The notes under the pieces are model-generated. The model was not told the DNA's origin and did not search any database. It saw only the letters and a program-made list of their open reading frames with translations. This document shows positions 3,246 to 57,466 of a stretch of 64,000 nucleotides of DNA, piece by piece (within the stretch, counting starts at the first letter, position 1; every line of letters begins with the position of its first letter). Source of the stretch: Vampirovibrionales bacterium. Its GTDB lineage: Bacteria; Cyanobacteriota; Vampirovibrionia; Vampirovibrionales; JAJTHC01. Made by a program: the position numbers and the translations under genes. The stretch lies in assembly GCA_046341215.1 (NCBI GenBank), contig JBKDRU010000007.1, forward strand, positions 799-64,798. Direction: 5' to 3'.

Positions 3246-3331
3246 AACTTATACGCTTGAACAGAAAGATCCCAATCTTGTTTACTACCGACAGTTTAAA
3301 GGATTGAACAGTGCATAAAACACACTATTTT

Positions 3332-5131: not shown

Positions 5132-5343
5132 ATTGAAGAACCTTGAGGGTTAGGCTGATTCACATCAGTCTGTAATGAATTCAGTTCCATTGTATAGTAA
5201 GCACGTTTGCACCGCAAGGCTTTGTTTGAGATGAAAGCTGATGAAGCAAAACGTGGGTTTTACGCACTAGGCGAAGGCTTGAAAAGGTGTCATACTGAAA
5301 CAGAGTGGCTCTTTGAAAACGGCATAGATGCGTCCAAACCGAC

Positions 5344-5514
5344 GACTTTCGTGGCCAGAAATCGGACTTTCGTGGCCAGAAATCAGACTTTTGTGGCCAG
5401 AAATCGGACTTTCGTGGCCAAAAAACAGACTTTCGTGGCCAAAAAACAGACTTTTGTGGGTCGAAAAGTCGACTTTTGTGGGTCGAAAAGTCGACTTTTG
5501 TGGGTCGAAAAAGA
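5344..5514. repeat. Tandem array of about 8 units of 21-22 bp (gactttcgtggccagaaatcg and variants)
   Basis: Contiguous head-to-tail repeats in three subtypes (..ccagaaatcg x3, ..ccaaaaaaca x2, ..gggtcgaaaagtc x2-3) with no spacers. Intergenic, about 210 bp upstream of the rluB start and 3' of typA. Confidence 0.9.
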
Positions 5515-5563
5515 CGCCTTTCTTGATGAAAAACGTCTTTTCTAAATGCTTAATTTTTTAAAA

Positions 5564-13933: not shown

Positions 13934-14794
13934 ATGGGCATTATTATTAATACCAACATTCAGTCGATTAGTTCACAACGTTTATTAAACGTCAATACGA
14001 TGAACCTGTCCAAAAGCTACGAAAAATTATCGTCAGGCTTTAAAATTAACCGATCCAGCGATGATGCCGCAGGACTTCAGATTTCTGAAAGTTTGCGTTC
14101 TCAAATTCGAGGGTCTCAACGAGCCTTAGACAATACCCAAGACGGCATTAACGTCCTAAACGTGGTGGACGGTACCTTTCAAACCGTCATCGACAACCTC
14201 CAGCGGATGCGTGAATTGACGGTTCAAGCCGCCAACGACACCAACTCTTCCCAACAACGTAGTGCGGTGAGTATTGAAGTTCGCCAGCTTTCAGCCGATT
14301 TAAACCGTATTGCGGCGGCGACGCAATTCAACAAGCGTAGCTTATTGAATGGATCAATTGCGAATTATTACTTGCAAGTGGGGTCTAATTCCAATTCGCA
14401 GGTGGACCGTATTGATATTGCTAACGTGGGGGGCGTTAATCCTTTTAGTAGTATTACGTCGTCGTCTTTATTTAGCATGACGGCAGGGTCTTCACTCGGT
14501 TTTGGTAACAACAGTTCGGCTCTCAACACACTGAGTAAAATTGATATTGCTTTAGCACGAGTGGGTAACCGTCGAGCCTCCTTAGGTGCGATGATTAACC
14601 GCTTAGAATCGAGCAGTAAGAACCTCGGCATTGCCATAGAAAACTTGTCAGGGTCTGAATCACGCATCCGTAATACGGATATTGCGAAAGAATCGGCTGA
14701 AATGACCAAGAATCAGATTTTACAGCAGGCTTCGGCGCAAGTCTTATCGCAAGCGAATCAATTGCCACAGCTGGCGTTGAAGCTTTTGCAATAG
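13934..14794 (+). CDS. fliC: Flagellin (short form, conserved D0/D1 only)
   Basis: N-terminal flagellin helix (INTNIQSISSQRLLN...SSGFKINRSSDDAAGLQISE) and C-terminal helix (LSQANQLPQLALKLLQ). 286 aa. RBS AGGAGAG. Confidence 0.85.
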   Translation: MGIIINTNIQSISSQRLLNVNTMNLSKSYEKLSSGFKINRSSDDAAGLQISESLRSQIRGSQRALDNTQDGINVLNVVDGTFQTVIDNLQRMRELTVQAANDTNSSQQRSAVSIEVRQLSADLNRIAAATQFNKRSLLNGSIANYYLQVGSNSNSQVDRIDIANVGGVNPFSSITSSSLFSMTAGSSLGFGNNSSALNTLSKIDIALARVGNRRASLGAMINRLESSSKNLGIAIENLSGSESRIRNTDIAKESAEMTKNQILQQASAQVLSQANQLPQLALKLLQ

Positions 14795-14798
14795 TAGT

Positions 14799-14912
14799 TT
14801 TTTCATCTCTCTCTCTCGCTTTCTCTCATTTTTCAGTTCTGGCTTTTCTTTCTAAGGTATTTTTTTCTTTCTCTAATTTTTTCTTTCTTTCTCTCTCTCT
14901 CTCTCTCTCTCT
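14799..14912. repeat. CT-rich tract ending in a (CT)11 dinucleotide microsatellite (14891-14912)
   Basis: Directly visible. Lies in the 3' UTR of fliC, before the terminator. Confidence 0.9.
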
Positions 14913-14916
14913 TAAA

Positions 14917-15120: not shown

Positions 15121-15771
15121 ATGTCTAACTCAGAACGTAAAACTTTTGTCTTAAAATGTGACAAACCCCGTTATGACGGCGGTATTGAAATTGATTTAGA
15201 ACGCTATTTCGGTAGACGCTTACAACCAAACTTAACCTCTTTAAAGGGTATGGCACAAGAACATCTCAACAAAGACCAGATTAAAAAGTTGGGTGATGAT
15301 GCTGTATTAAGCCCAACGCAAGTGATTGCTCGTGCCAAAGCGGCTCATTCCAAGCGGAGATCTCTATTAAGTGAAGACACCGTTTATGACATGGATGAAG
15401 CCTTAGAACGCAATATGGCAAGCGAAGATTTAAGCGAGTTTTTTCCTTACAAACGTGTCAGTAAAGTGGCCCGTCCAAAAGCGGATCGCAGTGTGAACGA
15501 TGCTCTTAAAGTCAGCGATGCGATGCATCCGATGATGCGTCAGGCTCGTTTGAAAGACGTCTTCATGCAAGGCCCCCTTCAAATGGGGATTGGTTTAACA
15601 GGATTACTTACCAGCCTTCTTGCCCTTTGTGCCATGAACTTGTGCGCCAGACCGGAAGGTATTCGTCACCAAGCTCGTCAACTTTTTCATGAATGTACGA
15701 GAGTTTTTTGGAAAGGCTTGTGGAATACGCTACTTTTACCTGCTTCTACGATGAAGGCCGTGATAATTTAA
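15121..15771 (+). CDS. Hypothetical protein with a C-terminal hydrophobic segment
   Basis: 216-aa ORF. A TGTAACAGATG motif sits in its promoter region. No recognisable domain. Confidence 0.4.
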   Translation: MSNSERKTFVLKCDKPRYDGGIEIDLERYFGRRLQPNLTSLKGMAQEHLNKDQIKKLGDDAVLSPTQVIARAKAAHSKRRSLLSEDTVYDMDEALERNMASEDLSEFFPYKRVSKVARPKADRSVNDALKVSDAMHPMMRQARLKDVFMQGPLQMGIGLTGLLTSLLALCAMNLCARPEGIRHQARQLFHECTRVFWKGLWNTLLLPASTMKAVII

Positions 15772-47210: not shown

Positions 47211-50180
47211 CTAAACAGGCACAACGCTCGTCAAAGTCGGATCAATTAAACGCTTGCCCGCTTTTTCAAAGACGATTGAAAGCACTTTGCGATTTTCAAT
47301 ATCTACCACAGAATGCACCACGCCTACACCGTACACCTCATGCTGTACTTCCATACCAGGTGAATAATCTACAACCGTTTGTGTAGGGGTAGGGAGCATA
47401 GGCACAGGCTCTTGATATTCGTACAAAGGCACGTGTGCAACAGGCACGCCATCTAAAGAATAGGGCGGGGTAATGGCAGGCATGTGAGAAGCGTCTGCAA
47501 GCGTCCGCATGGGAGCCATCTGATTATATTGATTGCCCTTTAAAGGCACATAACCACTGTCCATTTCGGCTAACTCTTGTTGAAAAGACTGAATCAAGTC
47601 GTCTTCCGCTAATGACGCTTCATCATAAGCTGGAACTAAGAATTCAGGCATTCCTGTAGGCACCTGTTCTTCAGCAGTTACGGAAACATCTTCTTCAACG
47701 ACAGGGGAAGCTTCGTGCGTCATTTCAAAAGAAAAGCCCGCGAGCGGATCTTCAGGGTCTATTTTAGGAACGGTATTGGCCTCTTCATGCCCCATAAAGT
47801 CTTCAGAAGAAACAGGGTATTCGCTTACCATATCATTAAATTCAGTATGCACGGCTTTTTCAATAATGTTTAAATCAAAGCTAAAATTGTCCAAGTCTTC
47901 TAATTGTAAGCTTTCGACTTCAACGGCTTGATGCACAGGTAAGCTCACATTCCCTGCTTGAACGGCGTCAAAGACGCTGGTCATTTCTTCTAGTTGTTCT
48001 TGGGGATTAAAATGGCTTGGCGCACTAGGCAAAAAGGCATCGTCTTCAGTAGCTTGAGGGGAACGGCCTTCAATGATCGGTTCATTCAATAAGTCATCAT
48101 AAAATCCTTCGCTTTCAAACTCTAAAGATTCTTCAAGCGCCAAAGGACTTTCTTCTGCGGTGAAATCCTCGGTCAAATCCAAGCTAAAATCAGGCACATC
48201 TAAGTGAGCTTCAGGGGCAAGTGGGCTTGACATCAGTTCTAAAGAAGCTTCGACAGGCTGTTCTGAAGAAAGAGTTTGCATAGTTTCTAGAGTCGATCGA
48301 TCTATAATGGGACCTAGTAAACTACTGGGTAGTAGATCTGGTGTAGGCTCCTGAAAACTTTCATCAGGAGCGGGTACATAATAGGGATCAAAATCCTGCC
48401 CAAACATGGACTCATCTTGATACAAGGTTTGTTCCAAGGCTTCTTCGGTGCTTTGAGGCTTACGTTTTAGCTCTTCTTTACCGTCAATAATGTATTCCAT
48501 GTGGAGTACGGCTTTTTCAGGCTCATCAAAACCCGAATCGGCAGATTCATCCAAGTAAGGGGTGACGTCTTCTAGCATGGAATCAGGCAAGCAAGGGTGA
48601 ATGTGATGTGTACTGTCTATTTCTTCGGACGTATCTATAGGGGCTGGATCCTCTTCGCCCTTAGAAGGATTCAACAAAGGGGCTTCAAGAAAAGTTTGCC
48701 ATTCTTCAGGCATTTCGCCTAAAATTGAATTGTAATGATGCACTTCTTCTTCAGCGGGATGGGCTTGAAGGGTTTCTAAAACGGGGGGGTTGTCTGAAGT
48801 TTTCAAATCAGAAGAAAAAGAGCTTAAAACGTCATCATGCGATTCATCGAAAGAACGATCCATTGCTTTATAGGGAGCGGCTTCAACAGAAGGGGGCTCG
48901 ATGGCTTGAAACGGTGTGGAAGACGGATCTTCTATAGGTTTTTCGGATTCAGATGAGCGTTTCAAAGGAGCGAACACTTCTAAAGGGGGCAAAGCAGGAA
49001 AATCACCGAATAGAAGGGGGATGCCCAGCGTCAATTCACTTAAGAATAAGGCTGTGGATTGACTGGCATTCACCTGTAAGAGATGTTGCTCACCCGCTTT
49101 TAGAGCGTCCGCCATAGGCTCTTTGTGTAAAGGGTGCAGATTCACAACATTCACGCCTTGTTCCAATAGCTGATGCACTTCATGTTCAACTAAAGTGGGT
49201 AAAGTCTTGTTACGACTAATATTACCAACCAGTATATTGCTTAAAGGCAACATACTATGACGCAACGCTTGATTCAAAAGTTCCCAAATCCACGCATGAA
49301 AATCAACGCTTACACTAGAAAGATCCAGTACAAGGAGCTTACCTTCACTTTCGGCGTGCTTCAGTTCTTGCATAAAATGGACGCTTTGTTGATGTTCCCC
49401 TTCGCAAAAGACTTTGCTCGCCTTACATTGATTCAACAAGCGAAAGAGCAAGCCACTTTGGGTGCTTAAAAAAACTTCTTCGAGTTCACGCAAACTTTGA
49501 ACCCTGAAAATACGTTGCCCTGCAATGCTGTTCCATTGTTTCCAAGCTTCTTCGGCTTGTGTGGGAGCTAAGGCTTTCGTCCAGGACTCAATGAGACGCT
49601 CCACCCCCCATGCTTCCACAGGAAATGCGTGGGTACGCCCCAGTTCCACCAAGTGAATCCCCGGTAATTGACTGCGTTTTAAAAGCCCGTAGCCATCGAA
49701 AAGCAAGGGGTGCATGCCTTCTTGACGTGCATTTAACAATAGGGAAAGTAAGAGTTCAAGTCCTCGTTCTTCTTGATCCGATTCCAAACGGAGTTGCCCG
49801 TAAACGTCACGCATTAAAATACGTAGGGCAGGGAATTGTAGATCGATAAGGGACGCTTCTGGTGTATTCAATAGAAGCGCTGCGAGTCGCTCAGCAGAAA
49901 CACGAAAGAAAGACTGCACATTTAAAACAGGCACACCATAAACAGGGCTCAAATGCAGGCGAGCTTCTGTATTTGTGGCGCTTTCAATGTCCGTAATTTT
50001 CAAGAGTTGACGGCGATTTTGGGCATCCACGGCAAGGACAAGGGCATTGAGCACCAAGGCATCGGCTTGAGCGTGGGGAATTTCAAGCAATACGTTTGAG
50101 TTGTGACGGCTAAAGTGAATAAAGTCCAACGCCTCTGGCATTAAATCATCTAAGTTTAAGGCATTTAATGCAAAGCTCAC
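47211..50180 (-). CDS. 989-aa protein: ~450-aa folded N-terminal domain, ~480-aa hyper-acidic (D/E/P/S) disordered region, C-terminal UvrD-C-like Tudor-fold domain
   Basis: C terminus VQHEVYGVGVVHSVVDIENRKVLSIVFEKAGKRLIDP matches the pattern of the UvrD/PcrA C-terminal domain (xRHxxFGxGxVxxxxGxxxxxVxFxxxGxKxL). The N-terminal domain is unrecognised. Confidence 0.6.
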   Translation of the reverse strand: MSFALNALNLDDLMPEALDFIHFSRHNSNVLLEIPHAQADALVLNALVLAVDAQNRRQLLKITDIESATNTEARLHLSPVYGVPVLNVQSFFRVSAERLAALLLNTPEASLIDLQFPALRILMRDVYGQLRLESDQEERGLELLLSLLLNARQEGMHPLLFDGYGLLKRSQLPGIHLVELGRTHAFPVEAWGVERLIESWTKALAPTQAEEAWKQWNSIAGQRIFRVQSLRELEEVFLSTQSGLLFRLLNQCKASKVFCEGEHQQSVHFMQELKHAESEGKLLVLDLSSVSVDFHAWIWELLNQALRHSMLPLSNILVGNISRNKTLPTLVEHEVHQLLEQGVNVVNLHPLHKEPMADALKAGEQHLLQVNASQSTALFLSELTLGIPLLFGDFPALPPLEVFAPLKRSSESEKPIEDPSSTPFQAIEPPSVEAAPYKAMDRSFDESHDDVLSSFSSDLKTSDNPPVLETLQAHPAEEEVHHYNSILGEMPEEWQTFLEAPLLNPSKGEEDPAPIDTSEEIDSTHHIHPCLPDSMLEDVTPYLDESADSGFDEPEKAVLHMEYIIDGKEELKRKPQSTEEALEQTLYQDESMFGQDFDPYYVPAPDESFQEPTPDLLPSSLLGPIIDRSTLETMQTLSSEQPVEASLELMSSPLAPEAHLDVPDFSLDLTEDFTAEESPLALEESLEFESEGFYDDLLNEPIIEGRSPQATEDDAFLPSAPSHFNPQEQLEEMTSVFDAVQAGNVSLPVHQAVEVESLQLEDLDNFSFDLNIIEKAVHTEFNDMVSEYPVSSEDFMGHEEANTVPKIDPEDPLAGFSFEMTHEASPVVEEDVSVTAEEQVPTGMPEFLVPAYDEASLAEDDLIQSFQQELAEMDSGYVPLKGNQYNQMAPMRTLADASHMPAITPPYSLDGVPVAHVPLYEYQEPVPMLPTPTQTVVDYSPGMEVQHEVYGVGVVHSVVDIENRKVLSIVFEKAGKRLIDPTLTSVVPV

Positions 50181-51772: not shown

Positions 51773-51858
51773 GGGGGACTCCTTGAACGATTTGGACTTT
51801 TATTATAGCTCAAAAAGTCGGGAATTGGATTGAAGTACTAAAGATTGGCTTAGTTTTC

Positions 51859-51980
51859 GACACACGAAATTCGATTTCTGACACACAAAACCCTGATTTT
51901 CGACACACGAAACCCTCATTTCTGACACACGAAATTCGATTTTTGACACACAAAACCCTCATTTCTGACACACGAAACAC
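51859..51980. repeat. Tandem array of about 5.7 units of 21-22 bp (gacacacgaaattcgatttct / gacacacaaaaccctcatttct)
   Basis: Contiguous repeats in two alternating subtypes. The unit is related, in reverse complement, to the 5344-5514 array (CGATTTCTG..ACGAAA.TC core). About 90 bp upstream of the lpdA start. Confidence 0.85.
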
Positions 51981-52095
51981 AAAGGGAATGATCCAAATGC
52001 TCTTCAAAAGAAAAGATTTATGCGTTTTTCAAGGAGCCACTCTTTTTCAGTATGACCGCTTTTTGACCGCTTGCCTAGTGCCTAAAAACCACGTT

Positions 52096-53187
52096 TTAAA
52101 GCTCGTCTTCATCCTCATCTTCGGATTCAAGCACCAAGAAATCCAAGATTTCTTCACGCAAAAAGCGAGGCAACTCTTCAATGTCTAACAAACCTTTTAA
52201 GGCAGGCATGCCACCAATACGGTACACCCCTGTCAACGCCGCATGAGCCACTTCCATGTTTTCGTCAAACAAGCGTTTGTGCAGAACCGCCAAATGAGAC
52301 AAGTCGCCAATCGAACTCAAGGCTTCTACCGCAGCGAGTCGAATGGCATTGGCGGGATCGTTTACCGCACTTAAAATGCCGTTTAACGCTTGATTTCGTT
52401 CGTTTTGAGACAACCCGTCTTCTTTTGCGAGCATGCCTACCGAATCCAAGATGCGTTCAATGAGAAATTGGCACTTTTCACGCACGCCTTTTTTGGATTC
52501 AAACAAATCCAGTAAGGGGCTTAACGCCCTAATATCGCCCAATAAACCCAAGGCTTTCACCGCCGATTCCTGCAAGTACATCGAAGATTCTTGATCGTCT
52601 TTCAGCACACGCAAGAGCGGTTGAACGGCATTGGGATTCTTGAGGCGTCCTAAGGATTCTGCCGCTTCTAAACGCACCCGATAGTTGGCCTGATTGTCAT
52701 TCAGCAAGCCCATTAACGGGATAATCGCCGTTTGGTTATTGAGCAAACCCAGCAAGCGAATGCTGGTGCATCGTAATTTTAGGACGGCTTCTTCTTCAAT
52801 AAAGGCACGGTAATTTTCCGCCTTTTCAAATAAGGCAATGCCTGTCGCCAGTGCAATATCCACCAGCGTGTCGTGCAAGCAAAACGCTTTGACGTCTCCC
52901 AGTAGCTTGACTAAAGCGTGAACCAAGGCAACATCTTCAGACGTACGCAAGAGTTTGACCAATTGGGGCAGGACTTGAAAGCCTGACGTGCCTTGGGTAT
53001 GGGGTTTAATGCGTTTTAAGGTATCCAACTTTTGAGCATGGGAGATTTCGTCACTTTGAAGACGCTCCAACATTGGCAACCACGCTGGGAGTAGGTGTTG
53101 AACATCCGCCAAAAGGGCATCTGCTTCAGAGAGGGGAGCAGGCTGGTTGGCGTTATAGGCATCTTCAGAAGGTGACCCCTGAATCAT
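52096..53187 (-). CDS. HEAT-repeat protein (PBS-lyase / E-Z-type HEAT-like repeats)
   Basis: Multiple LGxLGDxRAxxPL-type repeats (ALGLLGDIRALSPLL, AAESLGRLKNPNAVQPLL). Acidic C terminus EDEDEDEL. Confidence 0.7.
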   Translation of the reverse strand: MIQGSPSEDAYNANQPAPLSEADALLADVQHLLPAWLPMLERLQSDEISHAQKLDTLKRIKPHTQGTSGFQVLPQLVKLLRTSEDVALVHALVKLLGDVKAFCLHDTLVDIALATGIALFEKAENYRAFIEEEAVLKLRCTSIRLLGLLNNQTAIIPLMGLLNDNQANYRVRLEAAESLGRLKNPNAVQPLLRVLKDDQESSMYLQESAVKALGLLGDIRALSPLLDLFESKKGVREKCQFLIERILDSVGMLAKEDGLSQNERNQALNGILSAVNDPANAIRLAAVEALSSIGDLSHLAVLHKRLFDENMEVAHAALTGVYRIGGMPALKGLLDIEELPRFLREEILDFLVLESEDEDEDEL

Positions 53188-54765: not shown

Positions 54766-55758
54766 ATGTCCCAAAATGCTTTGTCTCCCGTCCTAAATAC
54801 AGCCCCTGCAAGCGTCACTCGTGTTGAACACGGGCTAATGGATGTCGCCCACGCCGACAATGCCACCGAAGCCTTGATTATGCTGGCCCAAGCCTTACAA
54901 TCAGGCGTTATGGACGACTGGCACGATGAAATCGATGTCAACACGGGCTATATTGTTTTGGCTCCCGCTCAAATACGTCGTATTGCTAAGTTGTTGGAAG
55001 AAGCAGGCAAGCCTTTTGGTGTCTTGTTTAGCCACGTGCCTCAAACCCAACAATCCGCCTTGAGTCAAGGGTTTATGGTGCGTGAAAATCCGGTGATTCG
55101 TCCGCCTCGGCAAGTGGTGATTCAAGAACATTTGTCATTTAACACCGCTGAAAATGGTGTTAATCCCCCTCATGCAGAAGCGTTTGCTCAAGCGGTCTTG
55201 GAAGATTCGCAGTTGACGCTGGTTAATAACGACACTGCCCCAGAAGACATGGGCTTACCTGCTTTAGAAGTCCAAGCGGTGGAAGTGAAAGGTCTTTATG
55301 AATGTGAAGCACTTGAACAGGCGTCGTTTCCTGAAGAGCAAGGGACTTGTTTTGCAGAAAGTCAAAACACCGCTCATGCGGATTTACCGACGAAAATCAT
55401 TAAAGGCAACTTGCGTTCAGGGCGTTTTGAACAGTACGGGGGGCATCTCGTTATTGTGGGAGACGTGCATACAGGGGCGGAAATCCGTGTGCAAGGGGAT
55501 GTTTTGGTGTGGGGCGAGTTGAGAGGTTTAGTTCACGCAGGCTTTAAGGGCAGTCGAGACGCCGAAGTGCGTGCCTTGAAGTTGGATGCGGTTCAGATTC
55601 GTATTGCGGATATTATGGCGCGCCGACCCGATCGTCACACGCAGTTACCGACGGCTCAAGAGCCTTGGAAGGCGCCTCAGGGGAGCTTTTACCCTGAAAT
55701 CGCTCGTGTGGTAGATGGTGAGATTCAGCTCTACACCACCCGTCGCCATGCGAACTAA
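54766..55758 (+). CDS. minC: Septum site-determining protein MinC (no minD/minE adjacent)
   Basis: C-terminal beta-helix domain (HLVIVGDVHTGAEIRVQGDVLVWGELRGLVHAG) and an unusually long N-terminal region. Confidence 0.75.
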   Translation: MSQNALSPVLNTAPASVTRVEHGLMDVAHADNATEALIMLAQALQSGVMDDWHDEIDVNTGYIVLAPAQIRRIAKLLEEAGKPFGVLFSHVPQTQQSALSQGFMVRENPVIRPPRQVVIQEHLSFNTAENGVNPPHAEAFAQAVLEDSQLTLVNNDTAPEDMGLPALEVQAVEVKGLYECEALEQASFPEEQGTCFAESQNTAHADLPTKIIKGNLRSGRFEQYGGHLVIVGDVHTGAEIRVQGDVLVWGELRGLVHAGFKGSRDAEVRALKLDAVQIRIADIMARRPDRHTQLPTAQEPWKAPQGSFYPEIARVVDGEIQLYTTRRHAN

Positions 55759-55856: not shown

Positions 55857-56285
55857 TTATTTCACGTCATAGAGCAAAACCGACTGCTGATAGACGGATT
55901 CAGCCAGACCAAAACCCTGCCCTGCTTGCTTACTAATGTTCGTCGCCGTTTCTTGATTCAACATGCCTCGGAAGGTTTTTTCGGATTCGCCTCCACTTAA
56001 AAAGCCTTCTTCACGATCCACGGTGGAATCCATGGCTTCAAGCAATTGTTGAAGAAATACCGCTTCAAACTGTTGAGCCGCCGTTTTTAACTCTTTTTGC
56101 TTAGGCGTTTGTGGATCCAAAAAGCTGGCTCGCAAGTCTTTGAGTCGTTCAGCCATTGGTTTGGCCACATCGCCTTCTTTAGTCGCTAGTTCAGGCACGA
56201 GTGAATTGTTTGGCTTAAACTTATACGCAGGCAATTCCGTAGGCGGTAAAGCAATATTGGGTAAGGCAAAGGAAGATAAATCCAT
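55857..56285 (-). CDS. flgJ: Flagellar rod-binding protein (FlgJ N-terminal-domain-only type)
   Basis: Rod-binding motif FEAVFLQQLLEAM, 142 aa, located immediately downstream of flgI. Confidence 0.6.
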   Translation of the reverse strand: MDLSSFALPNIALPPTELPAYKFKPNNSLVPELATKEGDVAKPMAERLKDLRASFLDPQTPKQKELKTAAQQFEAVFLQQLLEAMDSTVDREEGFLSGGESEKTFRGMLNQETATNISKQAGQGFGLAESVYQQSVLLYDVK

Positions 56286-56287
56286 GA

Positions 56288-57466
56288 CTAAATAATCTCC
56301 AGCTCCGCTTCAAGGGATCCTGCGGCTTTCAAGGCTTGTAAGATTGAAATCAAATCACTCGGCGTCACACCGATCGCATTTAAGGCGGTGACTAAATCGT
56401 GCAAGGTATTGTTCGCCCCTAACTCAATGAGACTACCCTTTTCTTTGGTAATATCCACCTTGTCATTGGTGACCAAAGCCGTGTCTCCGCCAGCTAGGGC
56501 ATTGGGTTGTACCGCTTCAGTGGTGCTTTGAATGGTCACAGTAATTCCCCCATGAGCCACCGCTGCAGGCAGGAGCCTTACACTACTACCAATCACTACG
56601 GTGCCTGTACGTTCATTCACCACGACTTTGGCATTGTCATTCGGCACATCCACCGTCAATTGCTCTAAAACCGACACAAATGCCACCCGATTATTCAGGT
56701 AACGGGTGGGCAGTTCCACGCGAATGGAAGAGCCATCCAAGGCAACCGCAGGGCATAAACTGGTATTTATTTTTGCAGCGATACGATTGGCTAACGTATA
56801 ATCCGTGCGGTTTAGTACCAGCGTTAAGCCTGTGGTATCGCCGACTTGCGTGTTCATTTCTCGCTCAATAATACCACCATTGGGAATCCTCGCACTGGTG
56901 GTAATGGCGGTTTGCTTGGAAGACCCGCCAGACGACACCGAAGAGCCACCTGTAGAAACAGGACCTTGAGCGACCGCAATGACTTCGCCGTTAGGGGCTA
57001 GTAATTGAGAGGAAATCAGGACGCCGCCTTCTAAGCTTTTGACTTTACCAATGGCAGAAAGGGTGACATCAATGCTGTCGCCTGCTTTAGCAAAGGGAGG
57101 AATCTTCGCAATCACCATAACTTGAGCCGCATTCGAACCTTGTAAATCGTTGGGATTGCTGATTCTTCCGCCTAAGTTGTTCAGCATATTCCATTGAGCG
57201 GTACGGGTCGCCACTGAGCTGTCGCCCGTCCCGTTTAGACCCACAACCAAACCATAGCCCACGACTTGGTTCATGCGAACATCTTTAATTCGTACCAAAT
57301 TTTTAAGGCTGATCGTTGTTTTGGCTTGGGCATGTGGGAGGAAAGCATCTGTTGAAACGGTGCTAAACGCCAAGATACTGACACTTAATAGAAACGCCAA
57401 TGAACGAACGGCGGTTTTTGAAAGGGATGAAGATAAACGCATGGTGTTAGATTTCCTTGAGGCCAA
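56288..57466 (-). CDS. flgI: Flagellar P-ring protein FlgI
   Basis: Signal peptide followed by conserved IKDVRMNQVVGYGLVVGLNGTGD; full-length FlgI. Confidence 0.85.
   Translation of the reverse strand: MASRKSNTMRLSSSLSKTAVRSLAFLLSVSILAFSTVSTDAFLPHAQAKTTISLKNLVRIKDVRMNQVVGYGLVVGLNGTGDSSVATRTAQWNMLNNLGGRISNPNDLQGSNAAQVMVIAKIPPFAKAGDSIDVTLSAIGKVKSLEGGVLISSQLLAPNGEVIAVAQGPVSTGGSSVSSGGSSKQTAITTSARIPNGGIIEREMNTQVGDTTGLTLVLNRTDYTLANRIAAKINTSLCPAVALDGSSIRVELPTRYLNNRVAFVSVLEQLTVDVPNDNAKVVVNERTGTVVIGSSVRLLPAAVAHGGITVTIQSTTEAVQPNALAGGDTALVTNDKVDITKEKGSLIELGANNTLHDLVTALNAIGVTPSDLISILQALKAAGSLEAELEII

Follow-up and report, generated by a model that had tools for sequence, protein, structure and literature searches.

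Two tandem repeat arrays in a 64,000-nucleotide stretch of DNA from a Vampirovibrionales bacterium (hereafter the window) belong to a lineage-restricted composite interspersed repeat with a fixed internal polarity, in which a conserved non-repeated head is followed, on the same strand, by a locus-specific linker and an array of short units. We show that the head and linker are under constraint, that block duplication and conversion renew the arrays at a very high rate, and that six units is the minimum array size. The Vampirovibrionales, predatory relatives of the cyanobacteria, have hardly been brought into culture, if at all, and we know of no non-coding RNA or repeat family described for them. 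The first-pass annotation of this DNA was concerned with the arrays; the conserved head module and the family-wide distribution were absent from it, and they change what the object is. Our preferred reading, which we hold tentatively and with rather less than even confidence, is that the elements are a family of small RNA genes bearing multivalent protein-binding repeats, a function that is inferred.

Both arrays are true tandem arrays with homologous units, as was originally annotated, and this is supported by TRF and by parsing of the units on the anchor TTYNRTG. Array 1 (5344–5514, plus strand) contains eight units, of which the first five are of type A (GACTTTCGTGGCCAGAAATCG, or a variant ending in AAAAAACA, 21 bp) and the distal three are of type C (GACTTTTGTGGGTCGAAAAGTC, 22 bp); TRF places it at 5344–5511 with a period of 21/22 and 89–100% matches. 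Array 2 (51851–51980, minus strand) contains six type B units (GGGTTTCGTGTGTCAGAAATGA and variants, 21–22 bp) and is placed by TRF at 51855–51978 with a period of 22. Periods of 43 and 65 score higher for array 2, which indicates blocks of two and three units and agrees with the expansion by multi-unit blocks that had been suggested from the sequence. The proposal that the two arrays are related in inverse orientation also stands, as their consensus units align with a score of 9 against −0.6 ± 1.9 in shuffles (reached by 1 of 2,000) and the heads that precede them are 83% identical. The units abut without unique spacers, only 5–6 variable nucleotides lying between the conserved unit cores, and the arrays are therefore not CRISPR, as had been recognised. 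No coding potential was found in the arrays, where any frame is broken by the mixture of 21- and 22-bp units, and short-read contigs of the window’s own strain terminate at both arrays.

The element has a head that was not part of the original description. A 72-bp non-repeated segment precedes each array on the same strand, at 5248–5319 (plus) and 52097–52026 (minus), and the two segments are 83% identical over 72 nt when inverted (blastn E = 9e-8). The presence of a homologous head before each array makes the two loci paralogous copies of one element consisting of head, linker and array. The assignment of the head of element 1 rests on this blastn match, on an nhmmer score of 75.8 bits and on block conservation among 18 independent copies. 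Specifically, from its 5′ end on the plus strand it incorporates; 1) an A-run with a short palindrome (5248–5267); 2) the motif TAGGC (5268–5272); 3) a 15-nt purine-rich spacer (5273–5287); 4) the motif TGTCATACT (5288–5296); and, 5) a near-invariant core, GTCATACTGAAACAGAGTGGCTCTTTGAAAA (5289–5319). A locus-specific linker (5320–5343, plus) then leads to the array. The last unit of array 1 is overlapped by a terminator-like hairpin, AAAGACG...CGTCTTT followed by a T-run (5510–5543, both strands), which is seen in the sequence and in its predicted fold, is conserved at two further loci (L026 and L011) and can serve both element 1 on the plus strand and the convergent typA on the minus strand. 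In element 2 the head (52026–52097, minus strand, with its core at 52034–52056) starts at the stop codon of a HEAT-repeat gene (52096–53187, minus), the linker (51981–52025, minus) is pyrimidine-rich and again locus-specific, and the array is followed at 51773–51850 (minus) by a tail (AAGCCAATCTTTAG...) together with lpdA’s own promoter and 5′ leader, in which TATAAT lies at 51802–51807.

Across the 18 independent copies the conservation of the head runs in blocks. The A-run with GTGGGTTTTA and the block CACTAGGC each reach 0.85, the 15-nt spacer falls to 0.61, the core GTCATACTGAAAAAGAGTGGCTC reaches 0.98 and the TTGAAAA that follows reaches 0.92, with the flanks of the head at 0.4–0.5. The value for the core has to be read with the fact that it is part of the search pattern and was hence selected by it, whereas TTGAAAA lies outside that pattern. 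The spacer has a fixed length in 17 of the 18 copies and is 71% purine, while its sequence differs among all paralogous heads, which implies that there was no recent burst of copying. RNAalifold found no conserved structure in the 26 heads (−5.7 kcal/mol, one compensatory pair), and small ORFs reading over head and linker, as judged from the sequences, have frames that differ among the copies. The linker tolerates insertions of 100–350 bp. We also observed a lone partial head, limited to its first ~28 nt (AAAAATAGTGTGTTTTATGCACT), at 3291–3330 on the minus strand (partial nhmmer match, E = 0.038), which carries the A-run and an AGTG..CACT palindrome, has neither core nor array, and lies directly after the stop codon of a fur-like gene. 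Similar partial head matches occur at L019 and L014, and smaller motifs may make up the head as a mosaic.

Using the 23-nt core of the head (GTCATACTGAAANAGAGTGGCTC, with one free position) as a search pattern over 185,579 species genomes, we found 24 further copies, all in six closely related MAGs, giving 26 copies in seven genomes when the window is included. Five of the six MAGs are labelled Vampirovibrionales, and the LpdA of the window has a counterpart of 100% identity among the proteins of a Vampirovibrionales MAG. The sixth, JBEISK01 (‘Gammaproteobacteria bacterium Sample-107-S80-bin-40’), is labelled Gammaproteobacteria; however, its DNA is 93–97% identical to the window and to the Vampirovibrionales MAGs at shared loci, and its label is thus very likely wrong. 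The family is confined to a single Vampirovibrionales clade. In 25 of the 26 heads an array of at least six units lies on the same strand, 35–415 nt downstream, the exception (L021) being a head without an array. A head HMM run over the window, the 24 loci and another ~190 kb from these genomes and their relatives detected no further or decayed heads, and there were no orphan arrays either; the clade DNA covered amounts to ~450 kb. This survey, together with the 11 loci present in JBEISK01 alone (L008, L010, L012, L015, L016, L019, L020, L022, L023, L024 and L026), suggests roughly 10–20 copies per genome. Neither head nor array was found in viral contigs (IMG/VR), blastn of both elements against PLSDB gave no match, and Rfam scans of the window, of element 1 and of an element with an inserted palindrome, at gathering and E-value thresholds, gave only chance matches. 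When an array-only pattern was applied to public metagenome contigs, none of the 120 matches listed had a head. Most of the matches listed, of which there were at least 120 (L027–L146), are (TTTCGTG)n heptamers repeated perfectly or almost perfectly in tandem, a kind of repeat that abounds in such contigs, and unrelated tandem repeats were matched as well.

In 192 units the invariant positions are TTT..TG..C..AAA. The pair that would close a hairpin within type A units is CG in 33 cases, CA in 29, TG in nine and TA in three, and no covariation of the unit hairpin was detected in the 192 units, either within units or between adjacent ones; inner units thus look like sequence motifs that would be equally readable on DNA. 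In the 25 arrays and the arrays of the lpdA locus the number of units ranges from six to at least 15, and none has fewer than six. Where arrays are mixed, A units are proximal to the head and B units are distal. Arrays usually close with a type C unit, which forms a perfect 7-bp hairpin, or with a CGG variant (GTGTGTCGGAAAT). A single inverted unit was seen, a type B unit (TTTTCGACACACAAAA) that ends the rluB–typA array of JBIKTR01 (L025:~985–1010).

The evolution of the element can be followed at the HEAT–lpdA locus, which we compared in seven element-bearing genomes. There the array has six type B units in the window, in L153 and in L161, and seven in L155, whereas it has eight type A/C units in L157 and L016 and six in L003. 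The expectation in the first-pass annotation that array length varies among related genomes is thus borne out (6, 6, 7, 8, 8, 6 and 6 units, in the order window, L153, L155, L157, L016, L003, L161). Both array types are present in both lineages, and L003 and L161 have A/C and B units respectively, yet their HEAT genes share 98.8% identity and their head and linker do not differ at all (100%). At the rluB–typA locus, likewise, the window has A/C units and JBEISK01 (L026) has mostly B units. Arrays have therefore been replaced wholesale between genomes that are 97–99% identical around them. In the opposite direction, when the window is compared with L161 the flanks are 85% (HEAT) and 76% (lpdA) identical, but head and linker are 96.6% and the array 94.4% identical, meaning that conservation of the element, with the locus-specific linker counted in, exceeds that of the neighbouring coding DNA. 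Over the orthologous loci as a whole, head and linker are 96–100% identical and the flanking genes 76–99%. One relative (L158, LpdA 90% identical) has an empty site, with a HEAT–lpdA gap of only 67 bp and an unchanged lpdA TATAAT promoter, and individual copies are thus dispensable. No target duplication is visible when the filled site of the window is compared with this empty one, the right boundary being fuzzy, and relatives whose TypA is 83–93% identical have no element beside typA.

Every copy is intergenic and nearly fills the gap between two genes. As judged from the sequences at 18 independent loci, the neighbours are housekeeping genes, encoding GroEL, TypA, LysS, DnaE, YidC, PurD, RadA, HisF, ProA, PdxA, FlhA and others, with no common function, and their immediate flanking ORFs include neither rep-like ORFs nor cas genes. 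The orientation of the element relative to its neighbours is mixed (eight tandem-sense, six tandem-antisense, five convergent and two divergent). Such mixed orientation and functionally unrelated neighbours are as expected of a self-contained unit. In seven of the 18 independent loci an upstream gene of the same direction has its stop codon within ~0–10 nt of the start of the head, or overlapping it, and at two of these loci (L008 and L017) the upstream ORF enters the head and stops at its conserved TAG. The two copies of the window are convergent. The distances to gene starts that had been noted for them were right (~213 bp for rluB and ~83 bp for lpdA), although the geometry differs between the two, as element 1 points away from rluB, with its head between array and gene, and element 2 points toward lpdA, its array ending ~20 bp upstream of the lpdA −35 region. 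Both flanks of each array are syntenic in all the related genomes sampled, which speaks against the suggestion that the arrays mark the breakpoint of a past inversion. Directly downstream of lpdA (47211–50180, minus strand) we note a protein of 989 aa, of low complexity and strongly acidic, that has no Pfam match and whose position is kept in all close relatives (L153–L157).

We hypothesise that each element is a transcription unit. The head would act as a promoter, with a −32-like CACTAGGC, a fixed 15-nt purine-rich spacer and a −12/−10-like GTCATACT, a layout that is suggested by the two conserved boxes around a spacer of fixed length and variable sequence. Behind it would lie a conserved 5′ leader of ~20 nt (AGAGUGGCUCCUUGAAAA), and if the promoter is correctly read, transcription of element 1 would start near 5302 on the plus strand. 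Transcription from head through array would give a small RNA of ~200–400 nt, composed of the leader, the locus-specific linker and 6–15 tandem units with a specialised last unit, and its 3′ end would be formed at the stronger hairpin of that last unit, with a U-run behind it or a terminator close by. Such an RNA would display at least six copies of a 16-nt motif, UUUYRUGKNNC-RAAA, and could serve as a multivalent decoy or platform for a putative binding protein, in the manner of the CsrB/RsmZ sponges but with another motif. Slippage, block duplication and gene conversion between copies would drive turnover of the arrays, so that motif types A/C and B replace each other at the same locus.

Several findings favour a self-contained transcription unit of this kind, namely the promoter-like head, a strand-specific terminal hairpin, T-runs, the tolerated linker insertions and the independence from neighbouring genes. 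On the element’s strand the last unit is more stable than the inner units (−3.22 against −1.49 kcal/mol, p = 4e-6; p = 0.009 when the last two units at independent loci are considered), and on the opposite strand the difference between last and inner units is not significant. A TTTT is found within 18 nt after the array in seven of 15 independent loci, against a background of 11.8% (p = 9e-4), and a canonical terminator lies close by at several further loci, as in element 1. The small RNA reading is further supported by the same-strand linkage of head and array in 25 of 26 cases, the lack of orphan arrays and decayed heads, the block-wise conservation of the head, the lower limit of six units and, at the lpdA locus, a conservation of head, linker and array above that of the flanking genes. 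However, most 3′ ends of the elements are not canonical intrinsic terminators, and at least ten paralogous sponge-RNA genes per genome would be unusual, both of which count against it, as do the lack of conserved structure in the head, the lack of covariation in the unit hairpin, the negative sigma-70 scan, the GTCA in place of GGTAA and the empty site of L158.

As to which polymerase holoenzyme might read the head, the cyanobacterial SigF promoter has TAGGC at −32, GGTAA at −12 and a purine-rich region (PMC2532724), and the TAGGC-N15-(N)GTCA of the head has the same spacing and purine-rich setting (PMC2532724). TAGGC and GTCA separated by a 16-nt gap, which is the SigF spacing, occur in 14 of the 26 heads. 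However, the −12 box of the head is (N)GTCA and not GGTAA, with 3–4 of five positions matching a consensus that is cyanobacterial and not this clade’s own. A relative encodes a group 3 sigma factor of the FliA/WhiG type. A SigF-type promoter in the head is thus a lead only. A more ambitious version of the small RNA reading is a regulon of ~10–20 small RNA genes per genome under a group 3 SigF/FliA-like sigma factor, whose products would be multivalent decoys with A/C and B alleles swapped by gene conversion and kept polymorphic across lineages; taken with all its parts, we consider it distinctly improbable. A sigma-70 scan found no promoter in the head, and sigma-70, sigma-54 and sigma-28 readings of the head, by scan and by eye, gave weak matches and were set aside. 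One perfect TAGGC-N15-GGTAA occurs elsewhere in the window (56240–56264, plus strand), in a purine-rich gap between the ORFs 54766–55758 (plus) and 56288–57466 (minus); chance alone would give ~0.5 matches of this kind in the DNA that was searched, and this one has no obvious downstream gene.

The main rival to the small RNA reading is that the element acts at the DNA level, as a platform for protein. The arrays would then offer phased sites to a protein that binds or wraps DNA, for example a nucleoid-associated protein, gyrase (compare the BIMEs of E. coli) or a titrated regulator, and the head would be a nucleation or accessory site. That the arrays hold multivalent binding sites, as the first-pass annotation had supposed, is possible, and we regard a function exerted on DNA as somewhat unlikely overall. 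The conservation of the units is consistent with it, being of a sequence-like kind (TTT..TG..C..AAA) without hairpin covariation, and the period of 21–22 bp amounts to two helical turns, with the T- and A-tracts about one turn apart. Moreover, the six-unit minimum of ~130 bp suits a wrapping length, two further YGTGG motifs are found in the head, orientation relative to genes is irrelevant, and a plasmid-like metagenome contig has similar 21-bp iterons beside a Rep-like ORF. Under a wedge model, most arrays also rank among the ~1% of 126-bp windows with the strongest curvature; however, the pure type-A1 arrays (L018 and L025) are not predicted to be curved, and static DNA curvature is thus not the property that the arrays share. 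Against this reading, nothing at the DNA level readily accounts for the strand-specific terminal hairpin or for the enrichment of T-runs, large insertions between head and array are tolerated, no candidate protein was found, and a perfect match to the DnaA box occurs only in the rare variant TTTTGTGGACAA, the T/A combination being present in three of 77 type A units.

Another possibility, which we judge to be unlikely, is that the element is a composite repeat of the BOX/MIRU type, selfish or neutral in nature, which spread by some form of transposition and carries a minisatellite drifting by slippage and conversion, any effects on neighbours being incidental. It has the same build as BOX elements, with a head, tandem modules in variable number (strains differ in their count of boxB) and an end of specialised form, it occurs in a narrow clade only, relatives with 83–93% TypA identity lack it beside typA, and one empty site (L158) is known. 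The two loci at which the upstream ORF stops at the TAG of the head look as they would after insertion, and the genomes hold several other small palindromic repeats, some of them inserted into the element. However, there are no terminal inverted repeats (p ~0.15–0.19) and no target duplication between filled and empty sites, no decayed copies were found, and no array is shorter than six units. Conservation is block-wise and not uniform, flanking coding DNA has diverged more than the locus-specific linker and array, and all paralogous heads differ in their spacer.

Finally, a cis-regulatory or contingency element, in which unit number would alter rluB or lpdA expression through promoter spacing or phase or through protection of an mRNA 3′ end, is very improbable, since although array length differs between near-identical genomes, the head adjoins or overlaps a co-directional upstream stop codon at seven of 18 independent loci and array 2 ends just upstream of the lpdA −35 region, the arrays are found neither within ORFs nor in any −35/−10 interval, the mixed 21/22-bp units break any reading frame, the orientation to neighbours is mixed, these have no function in common, and the empty site of L158 has the same lpdA promoter; the promoter-spacing role proposed in the first-pass annotation is thus not upheld.

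Small hairpin repeats abound in the element-bearing genomes. One of them, an imperfect palindrome of ~75 nt (GTCATCCTGAACGCATGTGAAGGATCTCC...GGAGATGTTTCGTTACACTCAACATGAC; fold −28.6 kcal/mol, z = −2.95; no Rfam match), occurs at L005:3855–3930, with equivalents in L007, L009, L011, L012, L013, L014, L017 and L021, and upstream of the head in L010. In at least eight elements, mostly those with type B arrays, it lies in the same orientation 5–25 nt after the TTGAAAA of the head, and it may represent either an additional module that marks a subfamily or a MITE that favours this target. A further small palindrome, CTATAGTGTTCGATAGA, is found repeatedly beside several elements (L024:4690–4715, L025:~1040–1070 and the tails of L013 and L005), and yet another inserted repeat (..CCTCTCCTTGAGGAGAGGGTTAGGGAGAGG..) is present in L019 and L022. 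Within the window, tandem repeats of 21, 27, 60 and 39 bp (41960–42134, 43789–43928 and 44643–44783) lie inside the long minus-strand ORFs 41941–43500 and 43779–45362, which encode repeat-containing proteins and are unrelated to the element, and a TC/TTTC microsatellite of ~100 bp (14806–14913) is found in the gap between the ORFs 13934–14794 and 15121–15771.

If the elements are transcribed, they would constitute an unusually large family of repeat-bearing small RNAs, and there is a minority chance that they represent a new class of repeat-bearing regulatory RNA. Should the decoy regulon be real, it would be a rapidly evolving RNA–protein titration system without a described counterpart. In practical terms, the arrays break short-read assemblies of these genomes and could be used as high-resolution strain markers, like MLVA loci.

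Comparison with known systems places the element between several of them. CRISPR leader–repeat arrays resemble it in having a leader-like head on one side, a polarity of the array and a divergent terminal repeat, but the element has no spacers, its units are shorter than CRISPR repeats (at least 23 bp), and no cas genes are found among the immediate neighbours of the 18 independent loci. The iterons of plasmids such as Rep_3 replicons are tandem direct repeats of 21–22 bp, as are the units described here. Iterons in general are direct repeats of ~17–22 bp to which an initiator binds, and it is in period and direct orientation that the units fit this pattern. In contrast to iterons, the element has no rep gene near it, is chromosomal and multi-locus among housekeeping genes, and has a conserved head where a plasmid origin has DnaA boxes and an AT-rich unwinding element. 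The lack of a rep gene and the chromosomal, multi-locus setting therefore exclude plasmid iterons, and the iteron-like role first considered for the arrays falls with them, there being at least 11 loci in one MAG and no match in PLSDB. On contig MWWE01000889.1 (L102:120–260), 21-bp direct repeats (AAAAAAGACTTTTCGTGTAGC) that resemble type A units lie just upstream of an ORF whose N-terminus (..RQHNALTNARYEYTELQLDLFFF..) resembles that of a Rep_3-type initiator, and these repeats are probably plasmid iterons.

MIRU-VNTR of mycobacteria and the STRR and BIME repeats of cyanobacteria and enterobacteria are, like the element, intergenic tandem-repeat families with strain-polymorphic copy number. 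Their unit length and sequence differ from those of the element, and to our knowledge none of them has been described with a conserved non-repeated head in fixed orientation. The REPs of BIMEs, furthermore, alternate in orientation, whereas the units here are all direct. A MITE was considered and rejected, as there is no terminal inverted repeat and, within the limits of a fuzzy right boundary, no target-site duplication is visible between the window and L158.

On the preferred small RNA reading, the element would share with CsrB/RsmZ a promoter of its own, many short motifs of which some lie in small hairpins, an end formed by a hairpin and U-run, and a fast-changing repeat number. It differs in having roughly ten or more paralogues per genome, against one to five for CsrB/RsmZ. 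The CsrA-type motif A(N)GGA, which defines those RNAs and recurs there in hairpin loops, does not account for the units, as GGA occurs only in the GTGGACA/ATGGACA sub-variant and is absent from GTGGCC, GTGTGTC and GTGGGTC units.

By analogy, the build is closest to that of the pneumococcal and S. suis BOX elements, in which boxB is ~45 nt long. BOX elements consist of boxA, a variable tandem array of boxB and boxC, with boxA and boxC of ~50 nt each; their length is strain-variable and they can be transcribed (PMC3049150). The build was compared by description, and no sequence relationship to BOX emerged from the Rfam scans. The element also lacks the terminal inverted repeats and fold-back of the BOX type, as head against reverse-complemented tail gave a mean of 5.5 against 5.2 in controls (p = 0.15–0.19). 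It is further set apart by its units of 21–22 bp, its lower copy number, its different host phylum and its two interchangeable unit types at the same locus. What the two have in common is a conserved head, tandem internal modules that vary by locus and strain and a distinct end module, in dispersed intergenic copies, numbering dozens or fewer, beside unrelated genes.
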